The position numbers and the translations under genes are program-made. The notes under the pieces are model-generated. The model did no database searches, was not told where the DNA came from, and saw only the letters and a list, made by a program, of their open reading frames with translations. A stretch of 64,000 nucleotides of DNA from an uncultured Gammaproteobacteria bacterium (GTDB lineage Bacteria; Patescibacteriota; Microgenomatia; CAZETR01; Amesbacteraceae), in the NCBI GenBank assembly GCA_964518565.1, contig CAZFGX010000001.1:798568-862567 (forward strand), written 5' to 3'. Shown in pieces: positions 3,616 to 22,760 of this stretch; position 1 is the stretch's first letter; every line of letters starts with the position of its first letter.

Positions 3616-3647
3616 CCTTTGATTTTATCGCACTAAAAAAGCGCATT

Positions 3648-3974: not shown

Positions 3975-4007
<33 letters not shown>

Positions 4008-4124
4008 CGTAGGTTCATAGCTACCCGGCGCTGCATCTGACGACACAACCGGCACACCAGCGGAACCTCCAACCCGGTCCTCTCGTACTAAGGTCGGACC
4101 CCCTCAAGAACTCACGACTCTACT

Positions 4125-4173
<49 letters not shown>

Positions 4174-4241
4174 CTTTTAACCGGCGAACAGCCGGACCCT
4201 TGGAAGGTACTGCCCCTCCAGGATAGGATGAGCCGACATCG

Positions 4242-4572
4242 CACTGTCGGATGTGACCCCGCTTACGCGGGGCGTTGACTATACCTTCACCCTCAATAGA
4301 TAAAAATCTAAAGTAGGGGCTGACGTCTTAACCTGCCTCAGCAGATTCCGTGGTCTTGAAACCACAAGTCGATACGGGGTCATACCGTCAAAGGCGGTAG
4401 CGGACTTCCCTCGGGGTTTTCCTTTAAACGTTCGCTTTCAAAGGAGTTCTCCGATATGAGTCAGTAAAAAAACTAAAAAATTAATTTGGTTCAGAACAAA
4501 AAATAAATACAAAATAACAAGGCTTGTTAATGCCATTACTGGCAACACACCCCGATAATAACCTGTTTGGTT
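4242..4572 (-). mobile_element. putative group I intron (no ORF) in 23S rRNA at E. coli site L2500
   Basis: A ~331-nt AT-rich insertion splits GGCACCT | CGATGTCGGCTC (peptidyl-transferase loop). Exon 1 ends in U and the insertion ends in G, as expected for group I splice sites. Confidence 0.5.
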
Positions 4573-5102
4573 AAGGTGCCAAACCGCCGCGTTAATGTGG
4601 ACTCTTGGCGGCGATCAGCCTGTTATCCCTAGGGTAGCTTTTATCCGTTAAGCCCGGTGCCTCCCACGAGGCATCCGAGGATCACTACGACCAACTTTCG
4701 TTTCTGCTCGAGTGGCTACTCTCACAGTCAAGCGCACTTATGCCGTTACACGACTCGCTCGATTTCCATCCGAGCCTAGTGCACCTTAGCACCCCTGCGT
4801 TACACTTTAGCAGGGTACCTCCCCAGTAAAACTGCCCCTCTGACCGTGTCTCCGATAGCGTTTCCAGCTACCTTGGGTGAGTGCTGAGATCTCAAAGCGG
4901 GAGGTGTTTCATCGTTGCCCGAAGGCTCCCTCCTACACTAAACTACCTCAAAATCCAGCACAGGGCCAGAGTACAGTAAAGCTCCATAGGGTCTTTTTGT
5001 CCTAGTAGAGTAAGGCCGCATCTTCACAGCCATTTCAATTTCGCCGGGTAATAGTTCAAGACAGTTATTCCCTCGTTATACCTTTCATGCGGGTCGGAAC
5101 TT

Positions 5103-5409
5103 CAATTATTTTTGTTTCTCTATGTCGCCATAGAGTTCGGACTATATCTTCATCCTGATGTTAGTTACATCAAGAGCTCTGCGTGTAGTCTCTGGGGATT
5201 TCCCGCCAAAGGCGGGATCTTTCCTGCTGATTGACTCCACCATCGGATTATCACTCTTTCGAGTACCTTTGGATACTGAGTTATTCCAGCATATAGCAAA
5301 GTTTTCACTAACCACCTGAAAGAAATATTTTTTATCTAATTTAACTAATGATAGGAACCTTAGTGCCCCGCATTATTAATAAAAATAATGTAGGGTCGGG
5401 CAAGTTATT
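5103..5409 (-). mobile_element. putative group I intron-like insertion in 23S rRNA near E. coli L1917-1931
   Basis: A ~305-nt insertion sits between GGTAGCGAAGTTCCTTGTCGGGT and AAGTTCCGACCCGCATGAAAGG (helix 69-71 region); the flanks align to E. coli 23S 1900-1960. Confidence 0.45.
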
Positions 5410-6890
5410 CACCCGACAAGGAACTTCGCTACCATAGAACAGTTATAGTTACTGCTGCCGTTCACTCGAGCTTCATTTCAACGCCTTGCGACGCATCCAC
5501 TTAACTTACGAGCACTGGGCAGGTCTCAGCCTGTATACCGCCACTTTCGTGTTCGCACAGACCTGTGTTTTAGTTAAACAGTCGGGAAATACTCTTTTGT
5601 TGTAACCTCGCTTACGCGAGGCAGGACATCTTGCATAGCTTACGTCCAGCTTTTTTGCCGAGTTCCTTGAACTACCTTCTCCCGATCGCCTTGGTCTTCT
5701 CGACCATCCCACCTGTGTCGGATTACGGTACGGCAAAATATATATCTCACTACGAATCTTTTCTCGAAAGCAAAAACTGCTTACATTGCCAAGTCAATTG
5801 CTCAAATTGGCTTTACATCACCGCTCAATTAAACGTCAATCCGGATTTTCCAGGATCAACTATTTTACGGCTTATACGTGCATTCACTGCACACGCGTAA
5901 GACTTCTCACTTTGTCCATCCCTAGCTGATAACGATATATATCTTGTAGTCGAATATTAACGACTCGTCCATCGGTTACGCCCACTACGGCCTCACCTTA
6001 GGTGCCGACTAACCCCCCGCCAAACAATGGTGCGGAGGAACCCTTGGGAATTCGGCGTGGATGATTCTCACATCCATCACGCTACTCATTCCGGCATACT
6101 CACTTGAGATCGCTCCAGCCCGCTTCACAGCAAACCTTCACTGCAATCTCAACGCTCCCTTACCACTCCCTTTCGCACGAATGCGAAAGAAAATCTGTAT
6201 CTTCGGCAGAATGCTTAAGCCTCGGTTCATTTTCCGCGCCAAACTCCCAATACTCGACCAGTGAGCTGTTACGCTTTCTTTAAAGGATGGCTGCTTCTGA
6301 GCCAACCTCCTGGCTGTCTGAGGAGTTCAACTGCGTTACACACTGAGCATTCATTTAGAGGCCTTAGATGACAGTCTGGGTTGTTTCCCTTTAGAGCGAC
6401 GCGCTTAGCCGCGCCGTTCTGACTCCCACACGGGTGACGAACACGAATTCGAAGTTTGACTGAGGGCCACAACTTGCGCTGCAACACCCAACCAGTGCTC
6501 TACCTCATGTTCGATACGTGTAGGGCTATACCTGTATATATTTCAGGGAGAGCCAGCTATCTCCTGGTTCGATTGGCATATTACCCCTAACCACAAGTCA
6601 TCTCATAACTTTGCAACGTTAACGAGTGCGGGCCTCCCCCCACCTTTCGGAGGGGTTCACCCTGCTCATGGTTAGCTCACCAGGTTTCGGGTCTTCCAGC
6701 ATGTGCTTTTTTTCGCCCTGTTAAGACTCGCTTTCGCTCCGCCTCCCCCCACTTGTGGGGTTAGACTCGCGCATGCCGAAAACTCGCCGGATCATTCTTC
6801 AATAGGCACGCCATCACCCCATATTGCTACGAGGCTCTGACTGTTTGACAGCAGACAATTTCAGTATCTATTTCACTGGGCGTCCCGCCC

Positions 6891-6931
<41 letters not shown>

Positions 6932-7514
6932 GGATAAGAGTATTTAGCCTTGGAGTGTGGTCACCCCGGATTCCCACAAGATCGTATTTCTCATGGTACT
7001 TGGGTATCCAATAGCATTGCGACACATTTCAGATACGAGACTATCACTCTCTTTGGTCAACATTTCCATGTTGTTCTCTTATCTGTCACAAATTACATAT
7101 TATGGACCCCGCAACCCCCAAGTCTTGCGACTGGGTTTAGGCTGTTCCGCGTTCGCTCGCCGCTTACTAACGGAATCTCGTTGATTTATTTTCCTGCCCC
7201 TACTTAGATGTTTCAGTTCGGAGCGTTCCCTTCCTCGCCAAAGGCGTAGGATCCTCATAAAGAGGAGGTTTCCCTATTCGGACACCGCCGGATCAAAGCT
7301 TCTTAGCAGCTCCCCGACGACTTTCGTGGCTATGTACGTCCTTCTTCGGCTCATTATCCCCTAGGCATTCATTGTCTGCTTTACGGAAGTAAAACATACG
7401 GCTCTACTAATTCAATTCTCTTCACTTTTAAAAGAACAAGACTCATCAAGTCAGCCGTAAAAGCTGATATCAATCCTGAAAATATTTCAAAACTGATATC
7501 AATTTTTAACGAGT

Positions 7515-7586
7515 GGACCCGAGCAGACTCGAACTGCTTACCTCCTCATTGCAAATGAGGCGTTCTACCAGGTGAACTACGGGCCC
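7515..7586 (-). tRNA. tRNA-Ala (anticodon UGC)
   Basis: Reverse complement GGGCCCGTAGTTCACCTGGTAGAACGCCTCATTTGCAATGAGGAGGTAAGCAGTTCGAGTCTGCTCGGGTCCA gives a cloverleaf with anticodon loop TTTGCAA; located upstream of 23S as in ITS regions. Confidence 0.85.
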
Positions 7587-7609
7587 ATAATTCCTGGGTT
7601 TTATATGTT

Positions 7610-7631
7610 AAAAAAGCCTCTTTCGAGGCTT
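7610..7631 (-). terminator. hairpin + U-run on minus strand upstream of tRNA-Ala/23S
   Basis: AGCCTC-TTTCG-AGGCT hairpin followed by a T-run on the minus strand. Confidence 0.3.
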
Positions 7632-7793
7632 GATTCATGGTATTTTGCTTCCTGCCGCTGGTACTAAAGCGTCCAGTTCAGGTTAAAAGAGGTAGATCGC
7701 AACATTTCCATGAGATAAACAGCCTTATGAAAGGTATCCACATATTAGCCTGTAAATCTACACCTGTCAAGGCAAACTTTGCTATACTAAATT

Positions 7794-9209
7794 ATGCCCC
7801 CTCAAGAACACGTAAAACCCGTATACCCCTTGATCACCATAGCCTCAGCGACCGTCTTTCTCATCAGCCTTCTCCTCTTCACTCCAAAGTCTTCCCCCCA
7901 ACCTCAACCCCAAACAACGCCCAAACAAACCCAATACCAGCTATTTCTCACCAGAATACCCAGTCCATTAGAAAAAATCACCATCGACAACCTGCCATCC
8001 ACAGAAGATCCCTACGATACGCTCAAATACCAAAATCGACTCATCTTTAGTGCCCAGGGTCATATCGTCGATTATGATCCAAATTTACGCCAAATCCTCC
8101 ATTATTCAGACCGTACCATCGCCAGATGTCTACGCGAGAAAGTAATTGTTAGTCATTATCTCTATGTCCCCTGCGACGAAGCTCCCACCTACCCCACAGA
8201 TTATGGTGACCAAACTCTGTGGCAGATCGACCTGACAGATTTTTCTGTCGCCAAAGTATATTCCCAAGCGAGCGGGCTTAATTCAGCCAGCAACCTCTTA
8301 CCAGTAGCCGATGGGGACACAATTTGGCTAGGTTCTTTTGACGGCTTGTCAAAATTTGATACCAAAACTGAAAAATTTACCACCCTTACCCCTCAACTGG
8401 GAATTTTTGGCACCCACATCCAGGTAAATAAAATCTTAGTCGACGATTCTCATGTCTGGTTTTACATCCCAGCTAATGCCTACTCGTCAGGTGGTATCAC
8501 GCTGTTTGACAAGAAAACTAACATCTTTACTCCGTTCAACTTTCAAACATTTGTCTCACCTCAATATGGCAGATTCGATCTAAATCAATGGAAACTTACT
8601 CCGGACGGCCTCTTGATTGCTTACTCAGACGATCGTATCTACAAAGAACAACTCTACAATTATCAAACAAACCAATGGCAATCAGTGAGATCTGAAAATT
8701 TTGATAACTACGAAAAAAATATCTCAAGATTTAAAACAGAAAACAGTCTCACAGTTCCGTACGACGACCCTCGTAGTTATTTGGCGCTTTCACCTACTAT
8801 AAATAACCAGCGTTTCGCTCTAACCAATAAAACGATAGATCTCATTACTCCCAATGATCCTTTTCCCATAATCCAACTAAAATTTCCCGAAGATCTGACA
8901 AATATTAGACCCAGTTATAACGCCAAAGACGGCATACTTTTTTACATTGACCCAGAAACCGAACTCGCGATCGTCATTGCAAATGTCGAATCTGGATATG
9001 GCGAACTACCTAGCCAAATGTACATAGTCGACTTGAAACAAAACACGATTCTCAAAAATACCTCCCTCTCCAGTGAAAAGTTTCCCTATTACACAATGAT
9101 TAATGCCCACGCAGAAAAAATAAACGACCAATATCAAATATTCAACGACACCAACACCTCACCATTTCTTGTCATAGACACCAAAACATTTGAATACAAT
9201 TTCAAATAG
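7794..9209 (+). CDS. hypothetical membrane-anchored/secreted protein
   Basis: 471-aa ORF, N-terminal hydrophobic anchor, Pro/Gln-rich spacer; no recognisable catalytic motif. Confidence 0.45.
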   Translation: MPPQEHVKPVYPLITIASATVFLISLLLFTPKSSPQPQPQTTPKQTQYQLFLTRIPSPLEKITIDNLPSTEDPYDTLKYQNRLIFSAQGHIVDYDPNLRQILHYSDRTIARCLREKVIVSHYLYVPCDEAPTYPTDYGDQTLWQIDLTDFSVAKVYSQASGLNSASNLLPVADGDTIWLGSFDGLSKFDTKTEKFTTLTPQLGIFGTHIQVNKILVDDSHVWFYIPANAYSSGGITLFDKKTNIFTPFNFQTFVSPQYGRFDLNQWKLTPDGLLIAYSDDRIYKEQLYNYQTNQWQSVRSENFDNYEKNISRFKTENSLTVPYDDPRSYLALSPTINNQRFALTNKTIDLITPNDPFPIIQLKFPEDLTNIRPSYNAKDGILFYIDPETELAIVIANVESGYGELPSQMYIVDLKQNTILKNTSLSSEKFPYYTMINAHAEKINDQYQIFNDTNTSPFLVIDTKTFEYNFK

Positions 9210-9210
9210 C

Positions 9211-10410
9211 TTACTCGTACCGCAACGCCACGATTGGATCCAATTTTGATGCCCGCAAAGCTGGTGTAAATCCAGCCGTAATGCCGACCGCACAAGAGAT
9301 ACCAAAGGCCAGCGCCACTGCCTGAGCTGTTACTGCTGTTTCAATGAATCTCGAAACCAGTGCCGCCAGTCCCCAACCCAATCCAATACCGATCAAACCT
9401 CCAAGTGCCGACAGCACAATAGCCTCAATCAAAAATTGCAACAAAATATCTCTTCGCTTCGCCCCTAATGCTTTTCGTAGTCCAATCTCACGCGTGCGTT
9501 CAGTCACCGACACCAACATGATATTGGCAATTCCGACTCCCCCCACCACCAAAGAAATAGCTGCAATACCAGCCAACGCTGCAGTAATTGTGCCCAAAAA
9601 TGTCTGGATTGTCTCCAAAATTTGCGTGGGTTTTAAGACGGTAAAGTCATCGTCTGTTAAACTCCGACGGTAAAAGTATTGTTTTATTTGCTCGACTGCG
9701 CGATCTACTTCCAGTGGTCCAGTAGCTTTGACCGTAATACTCCCGGGCGACTTCTCACCCAATAGTTGTCGCGCAGTCGTAGTTGGCATATACACCAAAG
9801 AGTCTTGGTCTCCTCCGCCAAACCCTCCACCTACTTTTTTCAGTACCCCAATAACCGTAAACTTTCTATTTGAAATTACGATTTGCTTTCCCAACACATC
9901 TGTTTCTTTTATCAATTTTTCTGGTATTGCTGACCCGACCACGACCACTGGCAATGCCCGCTCTTCTTGAGAGGCAGTAAACCAGCGACCACTAGATAAA
10001 TCAATATTTCTTAACGCCGGCAAATTTGCCCCAGCCCCATCAATAGATATATCCAAAGTCTCCCGTTTATACTCAGCCAGTCCAGATTTAAAAATCGACG
10101 CTGTTGCTCCAGCAATTGCTCCACCACGCCGATCCAAATTGGCCACATCTTCAAAAGTAAATTTCGGACTAAACGCTGTCGGCCTACCGCCACCACCTCG
10201 TAAATTCACTCGACCTGGCTGCACAAATACCACTTCCGATCCCAAGCTTTGAAATTGTTTTGTCACAAATGCCTGCAAACCTGCACCAATTGCCGTCAGG
10301 GCAATCACGCTCGCCACACCAATCACAATACCCAAAGTAGTCAAAACCGAACGCGACTTATTCGTTCGTATAGCCAATACAGCACTTCTAAATAATTCTA
10401 ATAAATCCAT
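9211..10410 (-). CDS. ABC transporter permease, FtsX/MacB family
   Basis: N-terminal TM, large periplasmic loop, C-terminal FtsX-type 3-TM bundle; the likely start is MDLLEL (10410), not the track start at 10482 that overlaps the ATPase. Confidence 0.75.
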   Translation of the reverse strand: MDLLELFRSAVLAIRTNKSRSVLTTLGIVIGVASVIALTAIGAGLQAFVTKQFQSLGSEVVFVQPGRVNLRGGGGRPTAFSPKFTFEDVANLDRRGGAIAGATASIFKSGLAEYKRETLDISIDGAGANLPALRNIDLSSGRWFTASQEERALPVVVVGSAIPEKLIKETDVLGKQIVISNRKFTVIGVLKKVGGGFGGGDQDSLVYMPTTTARQLLGEKSPGSITVKATGPLEVDRAVEQIKQYFYRRSLTDDDFTVLKPTQILETIQTFLGTITAALAGIAAISLVVGGVGIANIMLVSVTERTREIGLRKALGAKRRDILLQFLIEAIVLSALGGLIGIGLGWGLAALVSRFIETAVTAQAVALAFGISCAVGITAGFTPALRASKLDPIVALRYE

Positions 10411-10411
10411 A

Positions 10412-11101
10412 TTATTGTTTAACGATTTTTCCATCTCTGACCAGAATTTGCCGATTCGCTTCAGCGGCAATGTCTGGATCATGGGTTACCATAACTATGG
10501 TAATACCTGCCTTATGCAAGTCTTTAAATAATTGCAAAATTTGCTCTCCAGTTTTGGAATCGAGATTTCCTGTGGGTTCATCTGCCAATAAAAGCGACGG
10601 CTTAGTTACCAGCGCCCGAGCAATCGCTACTCGCTGCTGTTGCCCTCCTGATAACTGCGAGGGTTTATTTTTTAGCTTCTCACCCAACCCTACCCGTTCC
10701 AACTCTTCTTTTGCCAAACGTTCTCGTTCAGTTCTACTCATACCTCGATATATAAGTGGTAATTCGACATTTACCAGTGCCGGAGTTCGTGCCAGCAAAT
10801 TAAATTGTTGAAACACAAAACCGATTTTTTTATTCCGAAATTCCGCCAGTTTATTGTCATTAAACGTCACTACGTCTTCACCATCCACCAAAATATGTCC
10901 TTCACTCGGCCGATCCAGCAAACCAATCAAATTTAATAAAGTAGATTTTCCCGACCCAGACGGACCAATAATGGCCACAAACTCTCCTTCAAAAACAGAA
11001 AATGATGCCTCCGATAGAGCTTTAACCTGAACAGAAGGATCATCAGGACTCGTATAAATCCGTGATACGTTTTCAAATTGAATTACTGGTATTTTTTTCA
11101 T
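10412..11101 (-). CDS. ABC transporter ATP-binding protein (MacB/LolD-like)
   Basis: Walker A GPSGSGKST, signature LSGGQQQRVAIARAL, Walker B LLLADEPT, H-loop. Confidence 0.85.
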   Translation of the reverse strand: MKKIPVIQFENVSRIYTSPDDPSVQVKALSEASFSVFEGEFVAIIGPSGSGKSTLLNLIGLLDRPSEGHILVDGEDVVTFNDNKLAEFRNKKIGFVFQQFNLLARTPALVNVELPLIYRGMSRTERERLAKEELERVGLGEKLKNKPSQLSGGQQQRVAIARALVTKPSLLLADEPTGNLDSKTGEQILQLFKDLHKAGITIVMVTHDPDIAAEANRQILVRDGKIVKQ

Positions 11102-12093
11102 TGGACAACCACGACATCACCCTCTTGCAAGCCAGACGTAATCTGTACTTCAAAATCGCTTTCCAAGCCGGTAGTTACTTTCTTTTTTGTTCCATCTTTC
11201 ATTTGCACCTCACCATCTTTTACTGCTTCAATTGGCAACACCAACGCCCCCTTAGCTTCACCTAACTTCAATTCAGCATCACCATTCAACCCCACCTTCA
11301 ACTGACTACATACTTGGCCTACACTGTCACAAGAAAATGTCACCCAAATAGGCAAAACTGTAGCTCCTGTATCGCCGATTTTCGTTGCATAACCCACACG
11401 AGAAACTGTTGCTGGAATTTTTACATCTTTGAATGCATCCAAAACAATCGTTACGTCTTGATGAACATATACACGAGTAATATCGTCTTCGTTCACTGCC
11501 ACATCAAAATACAATGACGCAGGATCCACTACGGTCATTCCATCGGTCACCCCAACAGTATCCCCAGCCACACTTACTGTACTACTTGTCACAACTCCTG
11601 CAATTGGCGATTTCAATGTCGCATCTCGGACAGCTTTTTGAGCCACCAGCCAAGCATCATAAGCTTTATCTCGAGTCGTCTGTGCACTCACCCGGGTACT
11701 TTTCTCCAAAAAAGATTCAGTACTGTCTTTATTTTTTACGGTATCCTCAATATATTTTGCATTCGCATCCGCAGCCAAATAATTGTAACGTGCCGCCCGT
11801 TCAGTGGCTTGCAAATCTCCCAAATCAAGGCCAGCTAGCCATTCACCTGCAGTTACTGGTTGTCCAGCAAATGCTCTCACAAAAGCCAACTTTCCCGCTG
11901 AGCCAAAAGTGAGCGACGCTTTTCGTTCGGCATCCACTTTTCCAGATACTACCAAAGTAGATACTAAATCTTTTCGTTGTACAGTAGCCGTCTTTACTTC
12001 GACAGTCGTCTTTGTTCTACTTTTCCACCAAAATCCAATAGCCAAAAGTACAATTAAGCCCAAAATATACCGCTTTTTTAAAAATCTCCGCAT
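11098..12093 (-). CDS. periplasmic adaptor subunit (HlyD/MacA family) of the ABC efflux system
   Basis: 331 aa, N-terminal TM anchor, biotinyl/lipoyl-like and beta-barrel segments; start overlaps the ATPase gene, consistent with an operon. Confidence 0.65.
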   Translation of the reverse strand: MRRFLKKRYILGLIVLLAIGFWWKSRTKTTVEVKTATVQRKDLVSTLVVSGKVDAERKASLTFGSAGKLAFVRAFAGQPVTAGEWLAGLDLGDLQATERAARYNYLAADANAKYIEDTVKNKDSTESFLEKSTRVSAQTTRDKAYDAWLVAQKAVRDATLKSPIAGVVTSSTVSVAGDTVGVTDGMTVVDPASLYFDVAVNEDDITRVYVHQDVTIVLDAFKDVKIPATVSRVGYATKIGDTGATVLPIWVTFSCDSVGQVCSQLKVGLNGDAELKLGEAKGALVLPIEAVKDGEVQMKDGTKKKVTTGLESDFEVQITSGLQEGDVVVVQ

Positions 12094-12114: not shown

Positions 12115-14280
12115 TTGCAAATTCGTCACAACGTATCTACACTTTATCGAGTAGGCATGAAAACATTATTCCTGTTTTCGATTATCACAGTTGTTACGCT
12201 TCTATTTCTTGCTCCTCAAAAAACCCTAGCCAGATCAAGCCCATTTCGTAAAACTATCGCCCTTGAACTAGACACGCTATGCAATCGCCCGCAACGCGCT
12301 TCTTTCCCTGCCGGGGCAGTTCCCGGCCAATATGTTTACCCACTCACCCAACGCGACATAAACTACATAAAAGATCTCGGAGCATCGTTAGTTATTATCC
12401 AAGGCGGTCCAGCTCTTTGGGCCAATGTTGCCAAAACTGATCCATATGCAAATAATCAAAATCCCGCCAATTGGAACAATACCAATTACAATTGGGAACC
12501 TCTAGATCGAGCTCTGGGCTTACTTCAGTTAAATAATATTGAACCCATCATCCAATCCTTTGGTACTCCATCATGGGCCAATGGCATTTATACCGATTCA
12601 TCTCTAGATTCAGATAATTGTTTTGATCTTCTGGACAACGGCCCCATTCTTCCCACTGCCCATAGCGGGCTTACTGAATATGCCAATTTTATGCAAGCCG
12701 TCGCCACGCGTTACGACGGGACCCATGCACCAAACCCATATCGCTTGGGAGGCTTTATCAGGGTAAACCGTTACATCCTCTGGAACGAACCCAATTATCA
12801 AGATTTCTGGACCGAAATTCGCAACGGTTTTCGTGTTCAAGATGTCGCTCAAGATTCAAGTTTAATAAACAAATTTGTCACCTTAAACAACCAAGCGTAC
12901 AACATGATCAAAGATGTAAATGCTTCCTCAATAATTTACGGCGGTGCTATCTGTGGCCATTGTGAAGGATTTACTTGGCTCAAATCGGCCTACAATGCCG
13001 GACTCAAGCTAGATGCCATTGCTGCCCATCCGTATCCCATTGATTACAATGTCAGTCCTTCAAATCAAACTCCTACCTCCACTCAGCTTTCTACAAACAA
13101 CATTCAAGCCTTAAAAAATCTTGTGGATAGTCTGCCAAATTGGGCAAACAAACCTATCTTCATGTCCGAATCAGGCTACAGAACCCACGAAGGTAAATTG
13201 TTTCCTAACGCTCAAGCAAACGAAGGACCATGGTTGTCTGAGATCTTCAGCATCTCCAAAGCCGTCCCGACCAATTATGGCTGGACCCAATTTTTACTTT
13301 ACCCAGAATCAAATTGGGGCACTGGACTAGTCTCAGATACTGGATCTGAAGCTTCCGATATTCGCTATCCTTCCTATTCAGTCTTCAAATCCACAGCTGA
13401 AATTTACCCCATGGACATGAACAACGACAAAATCATCAATTACAAAGATAATGTTCTTTTCATAAACGAAATTGGCCAATCCAACTCACTACTCAAAGAT
13501 CAAGCCGATCTAAACTCCGATGGCAAAATAAATTCTCTAGATTTCGCCCTCTCTACCAAAAACCGCAACGCCGATTTCCCCTTAACTGTTTCCCTGCCAG
13601 CCAAAGTTCCACTACCCATTAGATACGACGAAGTCACTATTTACCCCGACGGCAAACAAATACTTATTTATGGTTCAAATATGTGGGAAAGACCCAATCT
13701 ATCTACCACCTTCTGGTCAAGTGGACCGTTAGAAACCATATTTTTAGGTCAAAATGCTCCAGTCAGACTACCCAACACTCATATCGATAGCTACTCCGTC
13801 ATCCCTGATGGTGAAAATGCCGGAAGCATCACAGTCACAAGTGACAATCGTCGCTGGTATCGTAACAAACACGAACTCACCTGGACCACCTCCACCCTCA
13901 GCGAGCTTTGGACTGGACACACATCCAACTATCCTCTACCTATCAATGTCATTGAATCAAATACCATTATTCCTGCCGGACTCCCGACTGCTGGTGGTCA
14001 GTTAATTACTTCCGGAAACCGATATTGGTGGCGCAACTCCCAAACGAGCACCAGTTGGACGAGTGGCACATTAGCGGAATTATTCACTGGCCACTCTTCT
14101 TCCACTCCCTTACCCACTACCAAAATAGATGCAGTTATCACTTTTCCATCAAACTCACCTTATCCTGGTTGGCAATTTGTTTATTCAAGCGACCGCTACT
14201 GGTACCGTACCAATCTAAATTCCACCAGTTGGACCACAAATACTATTACCAACTCACTATCAGGCCACCAAGTCTACTAA
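12115..14280 (+). CDS. secreted glycoside hydrolase (clan GH-A TIM barrel, GH5/GH39-like) with dockerin module and three C-terminal ~60-aa repeats
   Basis: Signal peptide. ILWNEPNY (acid/base NEP motif) and IFMSESGY (nucleophile Glu). Dockerin Ca-loops DMNNDKIINYKD and DLNSDGKINSLD lie ~31 aa apart. Three RYW(Y/W)RN...SWT repeats follow. Confidence 0.75.
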   Translation: MQIRHNVSTLYRVGMKTLFLFSIITVVTLLFLAPQKTLARSSPFRKTIALELDTLCNRPQRASFPAGAVPGQYVYPLTQRDINYIKDLGASLVIIQGGPALWANVAKTDPYANNQNPANWNNTNYNWEPLDRALGLLQLNNIEPIIQSFGTPSWANGIYTDSSLDSDNCFDLLDNGPILPTAHSGLTEYANFMQAVATRYDGTHAPNPYRLGGFIRVNRYILWNEPNYQDFWTEIRNGFRVQDVAQDSSLINKFVTLNNQAYNMIKDVNASSIIYGGAICGHCEGFTWLKSAYNAGLKLDAIAAHPYPIDYNVSPSNQTPTSTQLSTNNIQALKNLVDSLPNWANKPIFMSESGYRTHEGKLFPNAQANEGPWLSEIFSISKAVPTNYGWTQFLLYPESNWGTGLVSDTGSEASDIRYPSYSVFKSTAEIYPMDMNNDKIINYKDNVLFINEIGQSNSLLKDQADLNSDGKINSLDFALSTKNRNADFPLTVSLPAKVPLPIRYDEVTIYPDGKQILIYGSNMWERPNLSTTFWSSGPLETIFLGQNAPVRLPNTHIDSYSVIPDGENAGSITVTSDNRRWYRNKHELTWTTSTLSELWTGHTSNYPLPINVIESNTIIPAGLPTAGGQLITSGNRYWWRNSQTSTSWTSGTLAELFTGHSSSTPLPTTKIDAVITFPSNSPYPGWQFVYSSDRYWYRTNLNSTSWTTNTITNSLSGHQVY

Positions 14281-14286: not shown

Positions 14287-16479
14287 ATGATCAAATCACT
14301 CATCATTATCGGCGTACTAGCTACCACTCTCATCGTTGGTCTAAATTTAGCCAACAGAACTCAACGCATAAATTCAGAAGCAAGCAGTTTCAACACTCGC
14401 CTTTCATTACCAGCGACTTCTACCGCCACAGTAAACCAAACACTATCTCTGCCTGTTATGTTAAATACTGGCACAGCTCAAATCAGAGGCGCGGACGTGG
14501 TGCTTCAATACGACAAAACCAAACTCTCACTCAAATCTATCACTCCCAGTCTCTCTTCATCTTCTTTTACGTATCTACCGATAAACACTTCACATCTATT
14601 TGATATCAACAAAATTCTCCAACAAAGTAGTATTTCCGGCAACAATCAGACAATTGAATTTAACCTGGCCACTACTTCCATAGATAATCCTCAACCCACA
14701 ACCTTCTCCACGAACAACCAACCTATCCAAATTGCTATTCTCACATTCGATACTCTTAGCACTGGCAATACTCAAGTCTCTCTTATCAAAAATGGCGCTT
14801 CAACTACAGATAGTAATATCGCCCAAGCTGACAGTGGCCTAGATATTTTAGATTTTGTAGATAATAGTCTTGTTACAATTTCATCTCCCTCCACTTCCAC
14901 ACCCATTCCACCAACCGCGACAAAAACTCCATCAAACTCACCTACACTACCACCATCACCCACACCCACTCTCACACTCACCCCCACGCCTACACCCAAT
15001 CCGATCGGTTACCTAGACGATGCCACTTGTGCCACAATTTATGGCTGGTCATGTGATCCAAACTATAAAAATATTTCTGCCACAGTAACGATCAAAATCG
15101 ACGGCATTCCTCTCACACTTGTTACCGCCAACCAAACCCGGACAGACTTAAGTTCAGTATGTGGCAACACGACAAATCACGGATTCTCAATAAATACTCC
15201 AGCTTCAGTTTTTGACGGTCAATCTCACACTGTTACGGCCAGCAGCTCAATAAACGGTTATGTTAAAAATCTTACTGGTTCCAAAACCTTACGCTGTGTA
15301 ATCGCCACCGTCACCCCACGTCCATCCCCTACGCCTACAATTCGTCCCTCAATCACACCCACCCCCTCGCCCACCCCCACACCGATACCCACATCAACGC
15401 CCAAGCCTACTGCTACCAAAACCCCCACACCTATCCCTTCCACCACCACCTTCCCTCCAACACTCACTCCTGTCCCCACCACAATTCCCACAGCCACCGC
15501 TATACCCACTCCTATTCCAGATGGCTGGACTCGCTGTGCCACAGAAAACAATTTCTGCGCCTTTACCGGCACAGCTCAAGTCCGCTATGGCTTATTTGGA
15601 GCATATAACTATGGCGTCTTCACCAACGGCGTCCAATGTGCCAATTCTGTTTTCGGCGATCCTTTCGTCGGCTTTATAAAATATTGCGACTACCAATTAA
15701 TATCCACTCCCACACCTACCAAACCTCCCGTGGCCACCTCTACACCAAAGCCCACCACACCTCCTCAATCCACTAGCACCCCCAAACCCACCACACCTCC
15801 AGCCCCCACCTCTACACCTACTCCATCTTCCGATTGGATATATTGTGCCCAAGAACGCGAATTCTGTTCCTTTACAGGAACTGCAGAAATTCGCTATGGC
15901 ACACTCGGCAGTTACAATTACGGCACGTATACAAACGGTGTGGAGTGCAGCAATTCTGTTTTTGGCGACCCTTTCTGGGGTTTACGCAAACATTGTGATT
16001 ACCGCGTAATTACACCCGCTCCTGTTCCCACCCCCACTCTCCCAATCCTAAACAACGTCTTTAACATCTTTTACAACAATCTAGATTCCTCATGGCAAAA
16101 CTGGTCCTGGGATACCAATGTTCAAATTACCGATATTATTTCTACCACCTCAAACTCAAACAACGCTGGATTATATTTACGTAACCGTAACCCTCTACCT
16201 ACCAGCCAATATCAATATCTAAAATTCGATCTCAAAGCCAAACAACTACCCACCACAATTCGCATATTTGCATATGGTCAAAATTCCAACCCGCCTCTAA
16301 ATTCAGGCCTAGACATTAGTTCATACGGAACGATATCCACCCAAAATTTCATTACATTCAAAATTCCCCTATCCCAACTCAATGCAAACCAAACGGTATA
16401 TGGATTTTCATTCCAAATTTACGGCACATCTTCTTCAGGGAAAACAGTTTACCTAGACGATATTGTGTTATCAAACTAA
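14287..16479 (+). CDS. secreted multi-domain protein: cohesin-like module, PT linker, two Cys-rich ~58-aa repeats, conserved C-terminal domain
   Basis: Residues ~48-200 (LSLPVMLNTGTAQIRGADVVLQYDKTKLSL ... IAILTFDTLSTGNTQVSL ... LVTIS) follow the cohesin beta-sandwich pattern. Repeats GWTRCATENNFCAFTGTAQVRYG... and DWIYCAQEREFCSFTGTAEIRYG... are present. The C-terminus holds the shared W-x-W/LYLR/IDDI domain. Confidence 0.6.
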   Translation: MIKSLIIIGVLATTLIVGLNLANRTQRINSEASSFNTRLSLPATSTATVNQTLSLPVMLNTGTAQIRGADVVLQYDKTKLSLKSITPSLSSSSFTYLPINTSHLFDINKILQQSSISGNNQTIEFNLATTSIDNPQPTTFSTNNQPIQIAILTFDTLSTGNTQVSLIKNGASTTDSNIAQADSGLDILDFVDNSLVTISSPSTSTPIPPTATKTPSNSPTLPPSPTPTLTLTPTPTPNPIGYLDDATCATIYGWSCDPNYKNISATVTIKIDGIPLTLVTANQTRTDLSSVCGNTTNHGFSINTPASVFDGQSHTVTASSSINGYVKNLTGSKTLRCVIATVTPRPSPTPTIRPSITPTPSPTPTPIPTSTPKPTATKTPTPIPSTTTFPPTLTPVPTTIPTATAIPTPIPDGWTRCATENNFCAFTGTAQVRYGLFGAYNYGVFTNGVQCANSVFGDPFVGFIKYCDYQLISTPTPTKPPVATSTPKPTTPPQSTSTPKPTTPPAPTSTPTPSSDWIYCAQEREFCSFTGTAEIRYGTLGSYNYGTYTNGVECSNSVFGDPFWGLRKHCDYRVITPAPVPTPTLPILNNVFNIFYNNLDSSWQNWSWDTNVQITDIISTTSNSNNAGLYLRNRNPLPTSQYQYLKFDLKAKQLPTTIRIFAYGQNSNPPLNSGLDISSYGTISTQNFITFKIPLSQLNANQTVYGFSFQIYGTSSSGKTVYLDDIVLSN

Positions 16480-16511: not shown

Positions 16512-18635
16512 ATGCATCCACATAAAAAAATCGCTCATCTTTCACTTCTGGTTATTCTCTCCGCTATTATTGCCACCGCTGCCATTATCCGCAATATCCA
16601 TCCACAAAAAGTCTACGCTGCTACCCCAATAGACGACTCCCCCGTCACCAAAAATGTTCTTGTCTTAAATTTTAATCCTATTATAGAAAGCCAAGGTGGT
16701 CAAAGGTTAACTCAACTCAAAAATTGGTCTGATCCACATGCCATTACCACCCAAATCGTAAACGCTTTTCCATCCATTAGCCATGGATATTTATCTATAA
16801 ATGTGACTGAATTCCAGGATTTAGACCAAATCTTTCCGCTCATTGACGGCTACCAATACACTGACGACACATTGCTTACCTGTCTATCAAACACCTCCAC
16901 CTGTCACAATCCCCAGGGTACTGACTACGCTCGAATGTTTACCGACTTCAATATTTGCTCCAAAAATGTCGACGAAATCTGGCTCTGGGGCGGACCATAT
17001 TTTGGCTATGAAGAGTTTAAACCCGTAAATTATTGTGGCAAAACCCAATTTGTCATGGGCTTTAGTTATGAACGTATGTTTGATGAAGCCATTCATGATT
17101 TTGGCCACCGGATGGAATTTGTAGGCAACAATCGTGTGGGTGATGGCAACTGGCAACAAAACGAGTCAAATGCCTGGAATCGCTATTCACTTATCGCCAA
17201 TCATTGTGGCAATGTTCACTATCCTCCAGGTTCTTCAATTCCCCAAGACGAATACATCTACAACAAGTCAGCGTCAGTCAGTTCAGATTGTGACGGGTAT
17301 CTCAACTATCCAGATGGGCCATTCACTCAAACGTCACTCACCTGTAGTGCATGGGGCTGTACCCAGGGTGGCTACGTCCAATGGTGGCTCTCACACATCC
17401 CTGCTAAAACTGGTCAAACTGTTGTCAACAACAAAACCATTTACAACAATTGGTGGAAATACTATGCCTTTTACGACGAGACATATGCTCCAACCCCCAC
17501 AAACACCGCAGGTCAATTTACCAACCTAAATGCGACATTAGAACCAAACAAATCCACTTTCAACTTTGCCTATTCTTCAGCCGCCAGCTCATATCGCATA
17601 GACATGTCTATCAGCGCAGACATGGTGTCTGGCACCTATTTATCATTTGGCCAGGGCACTAGCTCACCCATAGTGGTAAACGATCCCACCAAATGGGCTT
17701 CATACACCTGTGGCACACAATTTTGGTGGCGAGTTGTAACGCCTGAAAACTATATGAGTCCAATACAAACAGCGACAGTAGTCTGTAACAACGTCACCCC
17801 AACCACCACTCCCACTATTGGCCAATATACCAATCTCAGCTCCAGCCTTATTGCTACTCAAGCAACATTCAACTTCAACTACTCAGCCACCGCCAGTGCC
17901 TATCGAGTTGATATGTCCATCACTCCCGACATGTCATCGGGCACCTATCTCACCTTTGGTCAAGGCACATCTTCACCAATCATCGTTACCAATCCCACCA
18001 AATGGGCTTCATACACCTGTGGCACACAATTTTGGTGGCGTGTTATCGGATCTGACAGTTCTCAAAGCGCCATCCAACCCGCAGTGGTCAATTGTTCTAT
18101 CCCTACATCCACCCCGACCCCAATTCCCCCAACTCCCACAAACACTCCGCTTCCCACATCTACGCCCAAACCCACCCCTACACCCATCCCTCCTACTCCC
18201 ACACCAATTAAACCATTAGTTATTTATAGCAATAGTCTGACAGCTCCATGGCAAAATGCCAGCTACGGTGGCTCTACCACCTTCGGTTCAAACATCAAAT
18301 TCGTCTCCACTCAATCAGGTGGTCGAATGTATCTCAGATCTACCACTGCCATCTCTGCTCTGCCCTACAACTTCATCAAATTCTCTCTCAAAGGCAGTAC
18401 TCCAAATCTAAACATTCGTCTCCATGGTTACGGAATTAGTACTTCTACACCCATGGCAACCTACGGATTAACTTCAGCCAAGGGCTCACCGAGCAATTCC
18501 TCCTTTACGTCATACACAGTCGACTTAGCCAAAATAGACCCCACCGATGCCAACATCTACGGTATCGCATTTGAATTATATGGTTCCTCTGTAGGCAAAA
18601 CCCTCTATATAGACGACATCTCTCTGACGAAGTAA
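16512..18635 (+). CDS. secreted multi-domain protein of unknown function with two tandem ~100-aa repeats and conserved C-terminal domain
   Basis: Signal peptide; internal duplicated module (...KWASYTCGTQFWWRV...) encoded with a 47-bp perfect DNA repeat; PT linker; C-terminal shared domain. Confidence 0.6.
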   Translation: MHPHKKIAHLSLLVILSAIIATAAIIRNIHPQKVYAATPIDDSPVTKNVLVLNFNPIIESQGGQRLTQLKNWSDPHAITTQIVNAFPSISHGYLSINVTEFQDLDQIFPLIDGYQYTDDTLLTCLSNTSTCHNPQGTDYARMFTDFNICSKNVDEIWLWGGPYFGYEEFKPVNYCGKTQFVMGFSYERMFDEAIHDFGHRMEFVGNNRVGDGNWQQNESNAWNRYSLIANHCGNVHYPPGSSIPQDEYIYNKSASVSSDCDGYLNYPDGPFTQTSLTCSAWGCTQGGYVQWWLSHIPAKTGQTVVNNKTIYNNWWKYYAFYDETYAPTPTNTAGQFTNLNATLEPNKSTFNFAYSSAASSYRIDMSISADMVSGTYLSFGQGTSSPIVVNDPTKWASYTCGTQFWWRVVTPENYMSPIQTATVVCNNVTPTTTPTIGQYTNLSSSLIATQATFNFNYSATASAYRVDMSITPDMSSGTYLTFGQGTSSPIIVTNPTKWASYTCGTQFWWRVIGSDSSQSAIQPAVVNCSIPTSTPTPIPPTPTNTPLPTSTPKPTPTPIPPTPTPIKPLVIYSNSLTAPWQNASYGGSTTFGSNIKFVSTQSGGRMYLRSTTAISALPYNFIKFSLKGSTPNLNIRLHGYGISTSTPMATYGLTSAKGSPSNSSFTSYTVDLAKIDPTDANIYGIAFELYGSSVGKTLYIDDISLTK

Positions 18636-18788: not shown

Positions 18789-18863
18789 GGGTGCGTAGTT
18801 CAGTGGTAGAACGCTTTCCTGATAAGAAAGAGGTCCATGGTTCGATTCCATGCGCACCCACCA
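18789..18863 (+). tRNA. tRNA-Ile (anticodon GAU), CCA encoded
   Basis: GGGTGCG/CGCACCC acceptor, GTTC/GAAC D-stem, CTTTC-CTGATAA-GAAAG anticodon arm, GGTTCGATTCC T-arm, terminal CCA. Confidence 0.85.
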
Positions 18864-18912: not shown

Positions 18913-19470
18913 ATGAAAAAACTGAAAAATAAATCAGACATTATAAAAACTTCAGTTGCCGTCATCGCTTCTTCATTTGCAGTAGTTCTTGCCACATCTC
19001 AACACTCAGTTTCTTACAACGCCAAAGCCGCAATTGAACCTACCCCTCTATATACGATTTTCAAAGATAGTCTAGCCAGTGGTTGGGAAAATTGGTCCTG
19101 GGGTGGCAAAGCCACTATTACCGATTACATTACATTTGTGACGACCTCCAACAACGGTGGTCTCTATTTACGCAGTAAAACTGCAGTCAACATGAGCCCA
19201 TTTGTTAGCCTACGTTTTTCTCTGAATGCGTCAAATTCAGAAAACATGATAAAAATATATTTTTACGGCGCAGACAAATCTACTCCGCTTAATCCCAAAG
19301 GGGAATACATTCTTCCTTATCGAGTATCTGGATCACAATACAACTACACTCTTCCACTATCTATGATGCACCTACCCAGCAACCCAAGTGTGTATGGTTT
19401 CTCACTCCAGTTTTATGGCTCAAATAGTAACAACAAAGAGCTTCGAATCGACGACATCTATTTGAAATAG
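18913..19470 (+). CDS. small secreted protein consisting essentially of one copy of the locus-specific conserved domain
   Basis: 185 aa, signal/anchor, then WENWSW...GLYLRS...YGFSLQFYG...IDDIYLK. Confidence 0.6.
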   Translation: MKKLKNKSDIIKTSVAVIASSFAVVLATSQHSVSYNAKAAIEPTPLYTIFKDSLASGWENWSWGGKATITDYITFVTTSNNGGLYLRSKTAVNMSPFVSLRFSLNASNSENMIKIYFYGADKSTPLNPKGEYILPYRVSGSQYNYTLPLSMMHLPSNPSVYGFSLQFYGSNSNNKELRIDDIYLK

Positions 19471-19499: not shown

Positions 19500-22400
19500 A
19501 TGAAATTTTTCCGTACAGTTTTTAGCACCAGCCTCTTACTGGTGATTTTCTCTCTAACCGCCCCAATTCATTCACATGCCGCATATGGCCTCCAAAGTAT
19601 CACCAATCTCGGTGGCACACCAGTCCAAATGGTTTTTGCTCCCGATGGCCGTTTATTTTTCACCGACAAGTGCGTAGGTCTCAAGGTTCGCAGTACCAGT
19701 GGCACTGTCAGCACATTTAGAAATTTTTCCAATCGTTGTGATTCAGAAAAAGGCGTCTTAGGTGTAGAACTCGATCCTGAATTTGGCAAAAGCACGGGCA
19801 ACGACTGGATTTATGTGTATTACTCTGTAGACATCAACAATAACGTAGCTGTTCGTTTTAAAACTGGCTCAGATAGTCTACAAACCTTAATTAGCATTCC
19901 TACTGGTAGTGCCGGCAATCACAACGGTGGTGCTATTCACTTCGGCACAGATGGCAAACTCTATATCTCCTCTGGCGATGGCCATCAATTTTCCCCCGCT
20001 CAAAACACCGGTAGTTTACTCGGAAAAATTATTCGTATAAATAAAGATGGCAGCATTCCTTCAGATAATCCATTTGGTAACGCTGTATGGGCATATGGAT
20101 TTAGAAATCCCTTCACGTTTGCCGTCAATAAATCCAACGGCAAGATATATGTCAACGATGTGGGTGAAGGTGCAGTCGAAGAAATAGATCAGCTCACCAA
20201 AGGTGCCAATTACGGTTGGCCTACCTGTGAAGGCAATTGTAGCAACTCCGGCATGACCAACCCCATAGCTCAGTATTATCATGCTGGCGCTGGCGGTCGT
20301 AGCAGCCCTGATGGTGAATCCATTACTGGTGGAGCTTTTTGGAACGGCAAATACTTCTTTAGCGATTACGCTGGCAATTGGGGTGGCACGTATACCAATG
20401 GCTGGATCGGCGTCCGCAATGAGTCCACTGGCTCGGTTCAAATCCAAATCCTAGGATACAACATGCCCGTAGCCATGGCAGTCAATCCAGTCGACAACCA
20501 GCTCTATGTCGTAGGGTTAGATGGCCAACTCTCCCGCATTACCGACACAGATGCCCCACCTCCAGCTGCCACCAACACACCACCAGTAATGACCAACACT
20601 CCCATTCCTGCTCCCAATCAACCCCCAGCACTCGTCATAAATTCTCCATCATCATCATTTAAGTATGCCGGTGGTGATACAGTGGTTGCTCTCGCCACAG
20701 CGACTGATCCAGAAGATGGCACCTTACCCGGCACCAGTATTCAGTGGAAAGTCGACTTTTACCACTACAATGTTTCACCTACAAATTTCCACGTCCATCC
20801 GTATCTAGACTGGTCACTCATTCCCAAAGGCAACACTGCCACCATTGAAATATCTCGAATCAACGAATACGTTTCCACTGTTTGGTATAGAATCACAGCC
20901 CGAGCCACAGATTCCAAAGGCGCCACCACCGAAAAATATGTCGATATTTATCCAGTCGTCGTTCCATTGACTGTTTCTTCAAATCCACCCGGACTTCAAG
21001 TCACCATCAACGGCCAACAACAACTCACTCCATATAGTACAGATACCGTAGCTGGGATTATTTACAACATCGCCACCCCAAATGCCCAAACCCTCAACAA
21101 CACTGCCTACTCCTTCACGTCTTGGAGCGATAATAGTACATCTCTCTCTCGCACCTACACTATACCCAGGACTCCCGTCCAGCTCGTCGCTCAATATCTA
21201 GCCGCACCTCAAACCACTATTACTCCACTTCCCACAATCACACCACTTCCAACAAACACCCCCATTCCACCAACCAATACCACATATTTAGGTCTAAATA
21301 CGATTGGCGATTTTTTTGATAGATACAACACTGGCTATCAAACCGGCTCTTCAATCATCACGGGCACCGGCAATCCAGTCATAAACAAAGTCAGCGCCTA
21401 TATAGGCGATATTGAGGCAGCACCCAACAACCAATATCAAGTCGCGATTTATTCAGATCAAGATAACAATCCTGGCACCCAAATCGCCAAAAGCACCCCC
21501 AGCACACTCAATGCCAACGCCTGGAACACCATCGATCTCTCAGCCCCTCTCCAACCTCAAACCAAATACTGGCTACTCTACAGCACCAATTCAAATGCTC
21601 CAGACAAAAACAATCTCAAATACAAACTATCCTCATCTGGAGCCGGACTATTTACGCTCCGATCTGCAGCCTTTGGCTCCTGGGGCACAAATCTGGCTAG
21701 TATCAAAACCCCCGCTCAGTACTCTCTCTATGCCTGGATTACCGGATCCACCCCACCCACAAACACCAACACACCTATCCCTACAAATACCAACGCACCC
21801 AACCCTACAACTCCACCAAATCCGACCACTCCTCCGTCTACTTCAAGCACAAATGTCTATACCGACAATCTATCATCCGGCTGGCAAGCATGGACCTGGA
21901 ACGGTACTGCTAACACCAGTTCAGTCAACCAATTTGGCAACAATTCTATTTCCCTGACACCTTACAATACCGATTCTGGTCTCTATCTACGCAAAACATC
22001 TGGTTCACCGATTTCTGGCTCCACATACAAATATCTCGAATTTAGTATGAAATCCGGACCTTCCAATCCACTAAATATCCGCGTTATGGCTTACGGCTCA
22101 AGTACAAATCCTCCATTTAGCAATGGTGTCTGGGTATCTAGCTATGGTGGCAAACCACCCACCGGCAACTATCAAAATTATCGTATCCCCTTAGCCGATC
22201 TTTCAGCTGCTGGCAAAGATATCTACGGCATTGCCTTCCAAGAACTCAACGATCCATCAGCCATCTTCTTTATAGATAATATTCGCTTCACCCAAAGTTC
22301 TACTTCTGGAGTAATTTACGACAATTCCATTGCCAACGATTGGCAGATCTGGAATTGGGGCGGCACCATCAACGGCGCCTCACTAAACCAATTTGGCAAC

Positions 22401-22760
22401 AACTCCATATCTCTCACTCCCTCAGGGGCTGATGCAGGCATCTATCTTCGCAAGGTAGGCAATGGCGGCTTTTCTACTAGTGGCTTCAAATATCTAAAAT
22501 TTATGGCCAAATCCGGCCCACCAGATCCAGTAAACATGCGCATTCTTGTTTACGGCTCAAACGCCAATCCGCCACTCAATGCGGGCAAGCTCTTGACCAA
22601 CTACGGCGGCAATCCTCCCACTGACACATACAAGACATATCTTATCCCCTTGTCTGATCTTGGAGCTGAAAATATCGATCTCTATGGCGTCGGATTCCAA
22701 ATCCAAGACAGTTCTCCATCCATCATATTTGTCGATGAAGTCAGTCTGGTAAACCAATAA
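19500..22760 (+). CDS. secreted PQQ-dependent sugar dehydrogenase-like beta-propeller (YliI/GSDH family) fused to PT linkers, a central domain and two tandem copies of the conserved C-terminal domain
   Basis: Signal peptide; NHNGGAIHFGTDGKLYISSGDGH, LGKIIRINKDGSIPSDNPF, WAYGFRNPF and ANYGWPTCEG match soluble glucose/sorbosone dehydrogenase hallmarks; two C-terminal domain copies (about 21853-22293 and 22310-22757). Confidence 0.75.
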   Translation: MKFFRTVFSTSLLLVIFSLTAPIHSHAAYGLQSITNLGGTPVQMVFAPDGRLFFTDKCVGLKVRSTSGTVSTFRNFSNRCDSEKGVLGVELDPEFGKSTGNDWIYVYYSVDINNNVAVRFKTGSDSLQTLISIPTGSAGNHNGGAIHFGTDGKLYISSGDGHQFSPAQNTGSLLGKIIRINKDGSIPSDNPFGNAVWAYGFRNPFTFAVNKSNGKIYVNDVGEGAVEEIDQLTKGANYGWPTCEGNCSNSGMTNPIAQYYHAGAGGRSSPDGESITGGAFWNGKYFFSDYAGNWGGTYTNGWIGVRNESTGSVQIQILGYNMPVAMAVNPVDNQLYVVGLDGQLSRITDTDAPPPAATNTPPVMTNTPIPAPNQPPALVINSPSSSFKYAGGDTVVALATATDPEDGTLPGTSIQWKVDFYHYNVSPTNFHVHPYLDWSLIPKGNTATIEISRINEYVSTVWYRITARATDSKGATTEKYVDIYPVVVPLTVSSNPPGLQVTINGQQQLTPYSTDTVAGIIYNIATPNAQTLNNTAYSFTSWSDNSTSLSRTYTIPRTPVQLVAQYLAAPQTTITPLPTITPLPTNTPIPPTNTTYLGLNTIGDFFDRYNTGYQTGSSIITGTGNPVINKVSAYIGDIEAAPNNQYQVAIYSDQDNNPGTQIAKSTPSTLNANAWNTIDLSAPLQPQTKYWLLYSTNSNAPDKNNLKYKLSSSGAGLFTLRSAAFGSWGTNLASIKTPAQYSLYAWITGSTPPTNTNTPIPTNTNAPNPTTPPNPTTPPSTSSTNVYTDNLSSGWQAWTWNGTANTSSVNQFGNNSISLTPYNTDSGLYLRKTSGSPISGSTYKYLEFSMKSGPSNPLNIRVMAYGSSTNPPFSNGVWVSSYGGKPPTGNYQNYRIPLADLSAAGKDIYGIAFQELNDPSAIFFIDNIRFTQSSTSGVIYDNSIANDWQIWNWGGTINGASLNQFGNNSISLTPSGADAGIYLRKVGNGGFSTSGFKYLKFMAKSGPPDPVNMRILVYGSNANPPLNAGKLLTNYGGNPPTDTYKTYLIPLSDLGAENIDLYGVGFQIQDSSPSIIFVDEVSLVNQ

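Follow-up and report, generated by a model that had tools for sequence, protein, structure and literature searches.

In the strict sense, a cellulosome is organized by a scaffoldin with at least two cohesins that integrates several dockerin-bearing glycoside hydrolases (GHs) (PMC13487519). A much reduced version of this arrangement is known from Cellulosilyticum lentocellum, in which two adjacent genes encode ClcC, a cohesin protein with a family 3 carbohydrate-binding module (CBM3), and ClcD, a GH5 enzyme with a dockerin, the two products forming a functional 1:1 complex, that is, a minimal cellulosome (PMC13487519). Cohesin and dockerin domains are also already known from Microgenomates and from related ultra-small bacteria of the candidate phyla radiation (CPR): Shapirobacterales were found to express cohesin- and dockerin-bearing proteins (PMC9123182), a Roizmanbacterium 'cellulosome' is mentioned by citation (Geesink et al., 2020, as cited in PMC9123182), a 'two-subunit cellulosome' has been described for T. 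rhizospherense (bioRxiv 10.1101/211649), and the dockerin protein SEML1_0315 of a Saccharibacterium is essential (PMC10633639). Here, we describe a locus within a 64-kb stretch of contig CAZFGX010000001.1 (64,000 nt, hereafter the window), in which the gene for a putatively secreted glycoside hydrolase with an internal dockerin is followed, on the same strand, by the gene for a single-cohesin protein, designated P0005. We consider it likely that this dockerin plugs, in a Ca2+-dependent manner, into the cohesin of P0005, giving a minimal 1:1 cellulosome-like complex.

The locus resembles ClcC/ClcD in its adjacent genes, in the combination of one single-cohesin protein carrying a carbohydrate-binding module with one clan GH-A hydrolase bearing a single dockerin, and in the proposed provision of the binding module in trans at 1:1 stoichiometry. 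It differs in its host, which is an ultra-small Patescibacterium and not a Firmicute, in the internal position of the dockerin, which is followed by four repeats, in its CBM8-like instead of CBM3 module, in its GH39-related instead of GH5 enzyme, and in a scaffold that has an N-terminal hydrophobic helix and additional Cys-containing modules. With the reports from CPR bacteria, including Microgenomates and Saccharibacteria, it shares the superphylum and the domain pair; whereas those reports consist of domain annotations, the locus presents an explicit adjacent enzyme–scaffold pair in an Amesbacteria-like genome, backed by structural models of both modules and by a gene neighbourhood that recurs elsewhere. 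Furthermore, it is akin to the non-cellulosomal cohesin and dockerin modules that, in the citing accounts of Peer et al. (2009), occur outside cellulolytic Clostridia as single or few modules per genome; the cohesin of A. fulgidus (2xdh), which belongs to this group, is among the structural matches of the P0005 cohesin. The window holds one dockerin and one cohesin in total, and thus does not amount to a cellulosome in the strict sense; nor does the locus overturn anything, the domain pair having already been reported in the superphylum.

The dockerin-bearing hydrolase

The features of the two genes on which the argument turns are as follows.

12157..14280, + strand: gene for the hydrolase with dockerin, 707 aa, from ATG at 12157 (mechanical open reading frame (ORF) from TTG at 12115); identical to the public protein P0001, which is encoded on a contig of 1,001,365 bp
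12157..12231, + strand: predicted Sec signal peptide, MKTLFLFSIITVVTLLFLAPQKTLA followed by RS, read from the sequence, with an inferred cleavage site
12244..13401, + strand: predicted (beta/alpha)8 hydrolase domain of clan GH-A, GH39-related, from motifs, Foldseek and homology to a protein of locus L090 (see below)
13411..13575, + strand: dockerin module, spanning aa 419-473
13414-13449, + strand: Ca loop 1 of the dockerin, DMNNDKIINYKD
13507-13542, + strand: Ca loop 2 of the dockerin, DLNSDGKINSLD
13609..14274, + strand: four tandem Trp/Arg-rich repeats of ~57 aa (13609-13764, 13765-13932, 13933-14106 and 14107-14274)
14287..16479, + strand: single-cohesin scaffold-like protein P0005, 730 aa, starting 6 nt past the stop codon of the hydrolase gene
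14290..14385, + strand: N-terminal hydrophobic helix of P0005, aa 2-33, a helix in the AlphaFold2 model
14392..14886, + strand: cohesin module of P0005, aa ~36-200, from Pfam, a family profile, AlphaFold2 and Foldseek

The segment 13414-13560 of the plus strand is a genuine dockerin module. Its translation, DMNNDKIINYKDNVLFINEIGQSNSLLKDQADLNSDGKINSLDFALSTK, lies within one uninterrupted ORF (12157-14280; 12115-14280 as mechanically called) and contains two 12-residue loops, each with D1, N3, D5, N9 and D12, whose starts lie exactly 31 residues apart, in agreement with a preliminary description of the sequence that had proposed this residue spacing at a distance of about 31 aa. Across the six frames of the window, these two loops are the sole matches to the regular expression D.N.D...[ND]..D and again the only ones to a looser pattern, with 0.01 (strict) and 0.18 (loose) matches per window expected from 100 mononucleotide shuffles; the loop pair is real, correctly placed and far above chance. 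The dockerin signature claimed in the same description is borne out by Pfam Dockerin_1 (PF00404), whose curated gathering cut-off of 22.9 bits is well exceeded both by the whole protein (30.3 bits) and by a 70-aa segment of it (35.7 bits, E 1e-8), and by an independent dockerin hidden Markov model (HMM), built from dockerins of unrelated proteins with the window sequence left out, whose one match among the 755 ORFs of the window is the hydrolase ORF (30.5 bits, E 8e-9). Additionally, a single-sequence phmmer search of the PDB is headed by type I dockerins, namely CelS of C. thermocellum (2mte/1daq, E 3.5e-4), 3ul4_B and 2y3n_B, with which both loops align in register. On the structural level, AlphaFold2, run for this region on an alignment of dockerin segments, gives a predicted local distance difference test score (pLDDT) of 80-89 over aa 421-470 and places helices at 429-438, 447-450 and 460-473; the predicted topology of Ca loop-helix, short linker helix and Ca loop-helix is that of the helical pair anticipated for such a module.

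Within the dockerins, the module shares with the clostridial type I members, such as CelS (1daq/2mte), the two 12-residue loops with D or N at positions 1, 3, 5, 9 and 12, the helix after each loop, the ~31-residue spacing, a secreted glycoside hydrolase as carrier, and the absence of an X-module. Unlike them, it has low internal symmetry, the halves being identical at 7/22 positions, lacks the Ser-Thr and Lys-Arg recognition pairs, carries Lys at position 6 of loop 1, has a short second helix and sits internally in its protein. Internal dockerins are known, though less common, an example being that of XynZ. Classical clostridial type I dockerins are marked by near-duplicate halves and by conserved residue pairs for recognition at 10/11 and 17/18. 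Neither was found in the module, so that the epithet 'canonical', applied to it at the outset, holds for the Ca loops and fails for the internal symmetry. In clostridial dockerins, residues 10, 11, 17 and 18 are the classical contact positions; here, YK/IN of one half stands against SL/TK of its counterpart, and because the halves differ at these contact positions, a single binding mode would be expected rather than a dual one, and is the more likely judging from the sequence. A type II dockerin was considered and rejected because the Ig-like X-module is absent: the dockerin follows directly after the catalytic domain, with no beta-sandwich between. 'Type I' is accordingly a reasonable label, given the missing X-module and the type I dockerins that head the PDB matches, yet it falls short of a strict assignment.

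The protein, in our reading a retaining glycosidase, begins with a signal-peptide-like N-terminus, where AlphaFold2 places a helix at residues 2-18, and the catalytic TIM barrel proposed earlier is supported at clan level by motifs, fold and homology. Both catalytic Glu motifs of the clan, an Asn-Glu acid/base following barrel strand 4 and a Glu nucleophile following strand 7, are kept: in the GH5/GH39-annotated homologues P0002-4, the acid/base motif WNEPN (E211, nt 12787-12789) has its aligned counterpart in WNEPN, and the nucleophile motif SESG (E338, nt 13168-13170) in TE[YF]G. Foldseek matches of the ~390-aa catalytic domain in the PDB, obtained with a model of moderate confidence, are exclusively GH-A barrels (GH53 6gp5 at 1e-5, GH39 8i0j/4ekj, GH42, GH113, GH10 and PslG). 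Pfam GH39 (PF01229) reaches 15.7-17.3 bits on the hydrolase, under its cut-off of 26, while a protein of locus L090 that is 34% identical to it over 412 aa (E 2e-69) passes the same model at 38.2 bits; hence the designation GH39-related in place of a family assignment. As to the repeats, the dockerin does lie between barrel and repeats as originally proposed, but these number four, each of ~57 aa, and not three. A repeat HMM finds four domains in the hydrolase ORF and none in the other window ORFs; the repeats are rich in beta-strands in the AlphaFold2 model, at low confidence, may be propeller-like, and gave no match in Pfam, PDB phmmer or PDB profile searches. A word-indexed homologue search with the whole protein returned three weak GH5/GH39-annotated relatives only, and the 72-aa dockerin segment drew no match there, as three 5-mers were shared with none of the candidates; no close relative of the whole protein was found in JGI metagenome contigs.

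The adjacent cohesin protein and its gene row

The cohesin gene next door is the most informative fact about the dockerin, and the locus is essentially a dockerin–cohesin gene pair. The N-terminal module of P0005 is a cohesin by HMM and by its predicted cohesin fold, a nine-strand beta-sandwich. Pfam Cohesin (PF00963), whose cut-off is 24.1 bits, scores 27.0 bits on the first 202 residues and 22.3 bits on the full-length protein, so that the domain alone passes and the full-length sequence stays below; a profile of 22 relatives of P0005 matches PDB cohesins (1qzn, E 6e-4). AlphaFold2, supplied with the alignment of these 22 relatives, yields a mean pLDDT of 93.1 and models residues 2-33 as a helix that leads into a beta-sandwich, and the ~45 top Foldseek matches of the cohesin in the PDB are all cohesins, including CohA2 of C. 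acetobutylicum (6kgc_A, 1.9e-11), 1g1k of C. cellulolyticum, OlpC (4dh2) and 2xdh of A. fulgidus. A hydrophobic stretch at the N-terminus, with an A-x-A-like motif after it, is common to members of the cohesin family. In P0005, the N-terminal helix may anchor the protein in the membrane or serve as a long signal peptide that is cleaved, with a possible cleavage site between SEA and SS, as judged from the sequence and the model. P0005 was not found among the GTDB representative genomes.

Beyond the cohesin, P0005 continues with Pro/Thr linkers and modules that contain Cys, ends in a CBM8-like module and has no dockerin. At aa ~375-555 (15400-15950), two ~57-aa Cys modules lie between Pro/Thr linkers, GWTRCATENNFCAFTGTAQVRYG...KYCDY and DWIYCAQEREFCSFTGTAEIRYG...KHCDY; they have no Pfam match. 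None of the four cluster proteins is covered by an NCBIfam model, and a scan for promoters and terminators gave the same counts as in shuffled sequences.

Adjacency of cohesin and dockerin genes recurs in other contigs. An exhaustive phmmer search gathered 231 representatives of the P0005 cohesin family at E<=1e-3; among the 64 closest homologues, to which the Pfam scan was applied, Pfam Cohesin recognizes 31 at E<=0.001, and Dockerin_1 is present as well in 22 of the 64. All seven independent loci with a family member that were examined (L082, L083-85, L086, L087, L088, L089 and L090), in part with a 6-sequence subset alignment of the family, have dockerin genes within one to two genes on the same strand. 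In L083, a protein with two cohesins and one dockerin is encoded immediately upstream of the cohesin gene. In L087, the gene of an internal-dockerin protein lies directly upstream of the gene for the cohesin closest to that of P0005 (37% identity), and the second repeat of this dockerin, DGKINSLDFAVSS, nearly equals DGKINSLDFALST of the window dockerin. One of three dockerin proteins of L090 is a GH39-like enzyme with F5/8C and dockerin domains, which is the 34% identical relative of the window hydrolase.

The architecture of two of these contigs deserves separate mention. In L090 (Ga0265594_1000186, 1-11400), an unbroken run of three genes for dockerin proteins precedes several genes for cohesins, with or without a dockerin. 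In L087 (Ga0209542_10000436, 2424-7086), the internal-dockerin protein carries Big_7 and SBBP propeller repeats, and the downstream gene combines a cohesin with Big_7.

The gene pair belongs to a row of genes for putatively secreted proteins in which a ~150-aa CBM8-like module occurs in five copies, distributed over four consecutive proteins; a profile search found it in no other ORF of the window.

16018-16476, + strand: CBM8-like module at the C-terminus of P0005
18165-18632, + strand: CBM8-like module, a diverged copy, at the C-terminus of P0006 (gene 16512-18635)
19030-19467, + strand: CBM8-like module at the C-terminus of ORF 18913-19470
21849-22289 and 22299-22757, + strand: two CBM8-like modules at the C-terminus of ORF 19500-22760

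Against the PDB, the module profile matches 7t7y, a Dictyostelium CBM8, nearly over its full length (E 2.3e-7). The ligand residues of CBM8 are W572, W574, Y600 and Q686 (PMC9079177); of these, four of the five copies retain the W-x-W pair and the Gln, but the alignment shows no evident Tyr. The hydrolase is the sole secreted protein of the row without a CBM8-like module, and also the sole one with a dockerin. The protein with two copies of the module, of 1086 aa and likewise secreted (19500-22760, +), begins with a glucose/sorbosone dehydrogenase (GSDH) beta-propeller (154.7 bits) ahead of its two CBM8-like modules, and its sequence suggests a sugar-oxidizing enzyme aimed at the same glycan.

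The probable partner of the dockerin

Given the observed dockerin, cohesin, gene adjacency and recurring neighbourhoods, the reading that we consider likely is that of cellulosome logic cut down to one enzyme and one scaffold. The genes of the hydrolase and P0005 would probably be co-transcribed; the hydrolase would be secreted and, by means of its dockerin and Ca2+, would dock onto the one cohesin that P0005 possesses. P0005, in turn, may stay at the membrane by virtue of its N-terminal helix or be set free, and its CBM8-like module would bind a beta-glucan-type polymer. The scaffold would thereby provide the hydrolase with attachment to the cell surface, to the glycan, or to both, in trans: the neighbouring proteins would attach by their own CBM8-like modules, and the hydrolase would borrow its attachment through the dockerin. 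Mutual binding of the two modules, its Ca2+ dependence, the location of the complex and its substrate are what we infer; the Ca-ligand residues in the sequence are complete in both dockerin loops.

Several points weigh against this reading. On the level of scope, the window covers 64 kb of a ~1.0-Mb genome, elsewhere in which further cohesins or dockerins may lie, and dockerin and P0005 are a candidate pairing; the neighbourhood contigs L082-L090 were used irrespective of taxonomy; and an ortholog with the same succession of hydrolase, dockerin and repeats was not found in the word-indexed collection or in JGI metagenome contigs. As for the models, the AlphaFold2 alignment for the dockerin region consisted of dockerin segments, which biases the model to that fold, and the model of the whole hydrolase protein is poor (mean pLDDT 60.9). 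The dockerin itself departs from the usual pattern in the Lys at position 6 of loop 1, where Gly is usual, a variant shared with another dockerin, P0160 (DLNNDKVINSID), and in its second helix (FALSTKNRN), which is short and less hydrophobic than that of classical dockerins. Moreover, the N-terminal sequence of P0005 fits a membrane-held as well as a released form.

The foremost of the alternatives, though an unlikely one, holds that the dockerin is real and that its partner is another cohesin, encoded elsewhere in the genome or displayed by another cell, for instance a host bacterium. Room for such cohesins is left by a window of 64 kb in a ~1-Mb genome. The 22 of the 64 closest homologues that carry a dockerin of their own could form chains and point to networks more than to pairs in the strict sense; several cohesins and dockerins occur together in clusters such as that of L090, and cohesin–dockerin recognition across species has been discussed (PMC13487519). 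Set against this are the single dockerin and single cohesin of the window, encoded 6 nt apart on the same strand, the adjacency of cohesin and dockerin genes in every locus examined, and the lack of a dockerin in P0005, which makes it an end-point acceptor. The same adjacency bears on a further alternative, less probable again, in which the module is derived from a dockerin and retains Ca2+ without binding a cohesin, serving as a stabilized linker between the catalytic domain and the repeats or binding some other ligand. Its internal position, degenerate second helix and repeats identical at only 7/22 positions would fit such a role, and, according to Peer et al. (2009, as cited in PMC10066038 and PMC13487519), a partner is not known for many dockerin-like modules outside cellulosomes. 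However, every Ca-ligand position is intact in both loops, a cohesin gene is immediately adjacent, and the internal dockerin of L087, with its near-identical second repeat, also stands directly upstream of a cohesin gene, which argues for selection on the binding surface.

Least probable of all is a chance occurrence or a generic EF-hand pair, which is effectively refuted by Pfam scores, PDB matches, motif statistics and the independent dockerin HMM. Weak matches to EF-hand_5 (13.7 bits) and EF-hand_1 (12.7 bits) do exist on the same protein, but they stay far under cut-offs of ~25, whereas Dockerin_1 lies well above its own; the best PDB matches are dockerins, the strict loop motif is expected 0.01 times per window, and the context is that of a secreted enzyme with a cohesin neighbour. 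Docking of the hydrolase onto P0005 remains the preferred account.

Genomic setting and significance for Patescibacteria

The assignment of the window to Patescibacteria, guessed at in the preliminary description, agrees with its FtsH gene (41432-43336), the product of which is 75-78% identical to that of Candidatus Amesbacteria metagenome-assembled genomes and ~60-66% identical to that of other Microgenomates. The window shows a very strong strand asymmetry in composition over 1-64000, with an overall GC skew of -0.26 on the plus strand; at third codon positions, the skew is -0.61 in plus-strand genes and, in plus-strand terms, -0.51 in minus-strand genes, and since it is negative in both gene orientations, the asymmetry follows the DNA strand and not the direction of transcription. 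The rRNA genes are unlinked, with 5S, 23S and tRNA-Ala at 3650-7586 (-) and 16S at 27062-28545 (-), separated by ~19.5 kb of protein genes that include the dockerin/cohesin cluster. Within the 3547 nt spanned by the 23S gene lies a group I intron (5118-5388); a further match to the full group I intron model (54817-55008, -, 62.8 bits) lies outside the detected rRNA and tRNA genes, beside a 222-aa ORF (55127-55795, +) that is homing-endonuclease-like by eye only.

Additional features of the window include a tRNA-Ile(UAU) at 58356-58429 (-), besides a tRNA-Ile(GAU) at 18789-18863, the former being an uncommon bacterial way of reading AUA; an ATP-dependent DNA ligase at 33577-35262 (-), whose three domains (N, adenylation and C) are all present; and a 786-aa protein at 58456-60816 (-) that weakly matches coupling proteins of type IV secretion, of the TraG/TrwB-like kind.

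Patescibacteria have tiny genomes and rely on other cells or external polymers, which makes the arming of their surfaces a live question. The locus is a cloneable two-gene pair that could show whether docking puts a Microgenomates glycosidase on the cell surface or on a glycan, and the sizeable family of cohesins with an anchor-like helix and conserved dockerin neighbours is open to systematic survey. Tentatively, and at a probability well short of even, this anchored cohesin family may represent a distinct and widespread cell-surface assembly system of ultra-small CPR bacteria, a suggestion prompted by its 231 representatives, by the roughly one third of the 64 closest homologues with a dockerin of their own, and by the dockerin neighbours at every locus examined. 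If so, the family would display hydrolases and adhesins for attachment to, and feeding on, glycans of host cells or of the environment and not plant cell walls, and the pairing of a dockerin-bearing glycoside hydrolase with a cohesin–CBM8 protein described here would be the simplest form of that assembly system.

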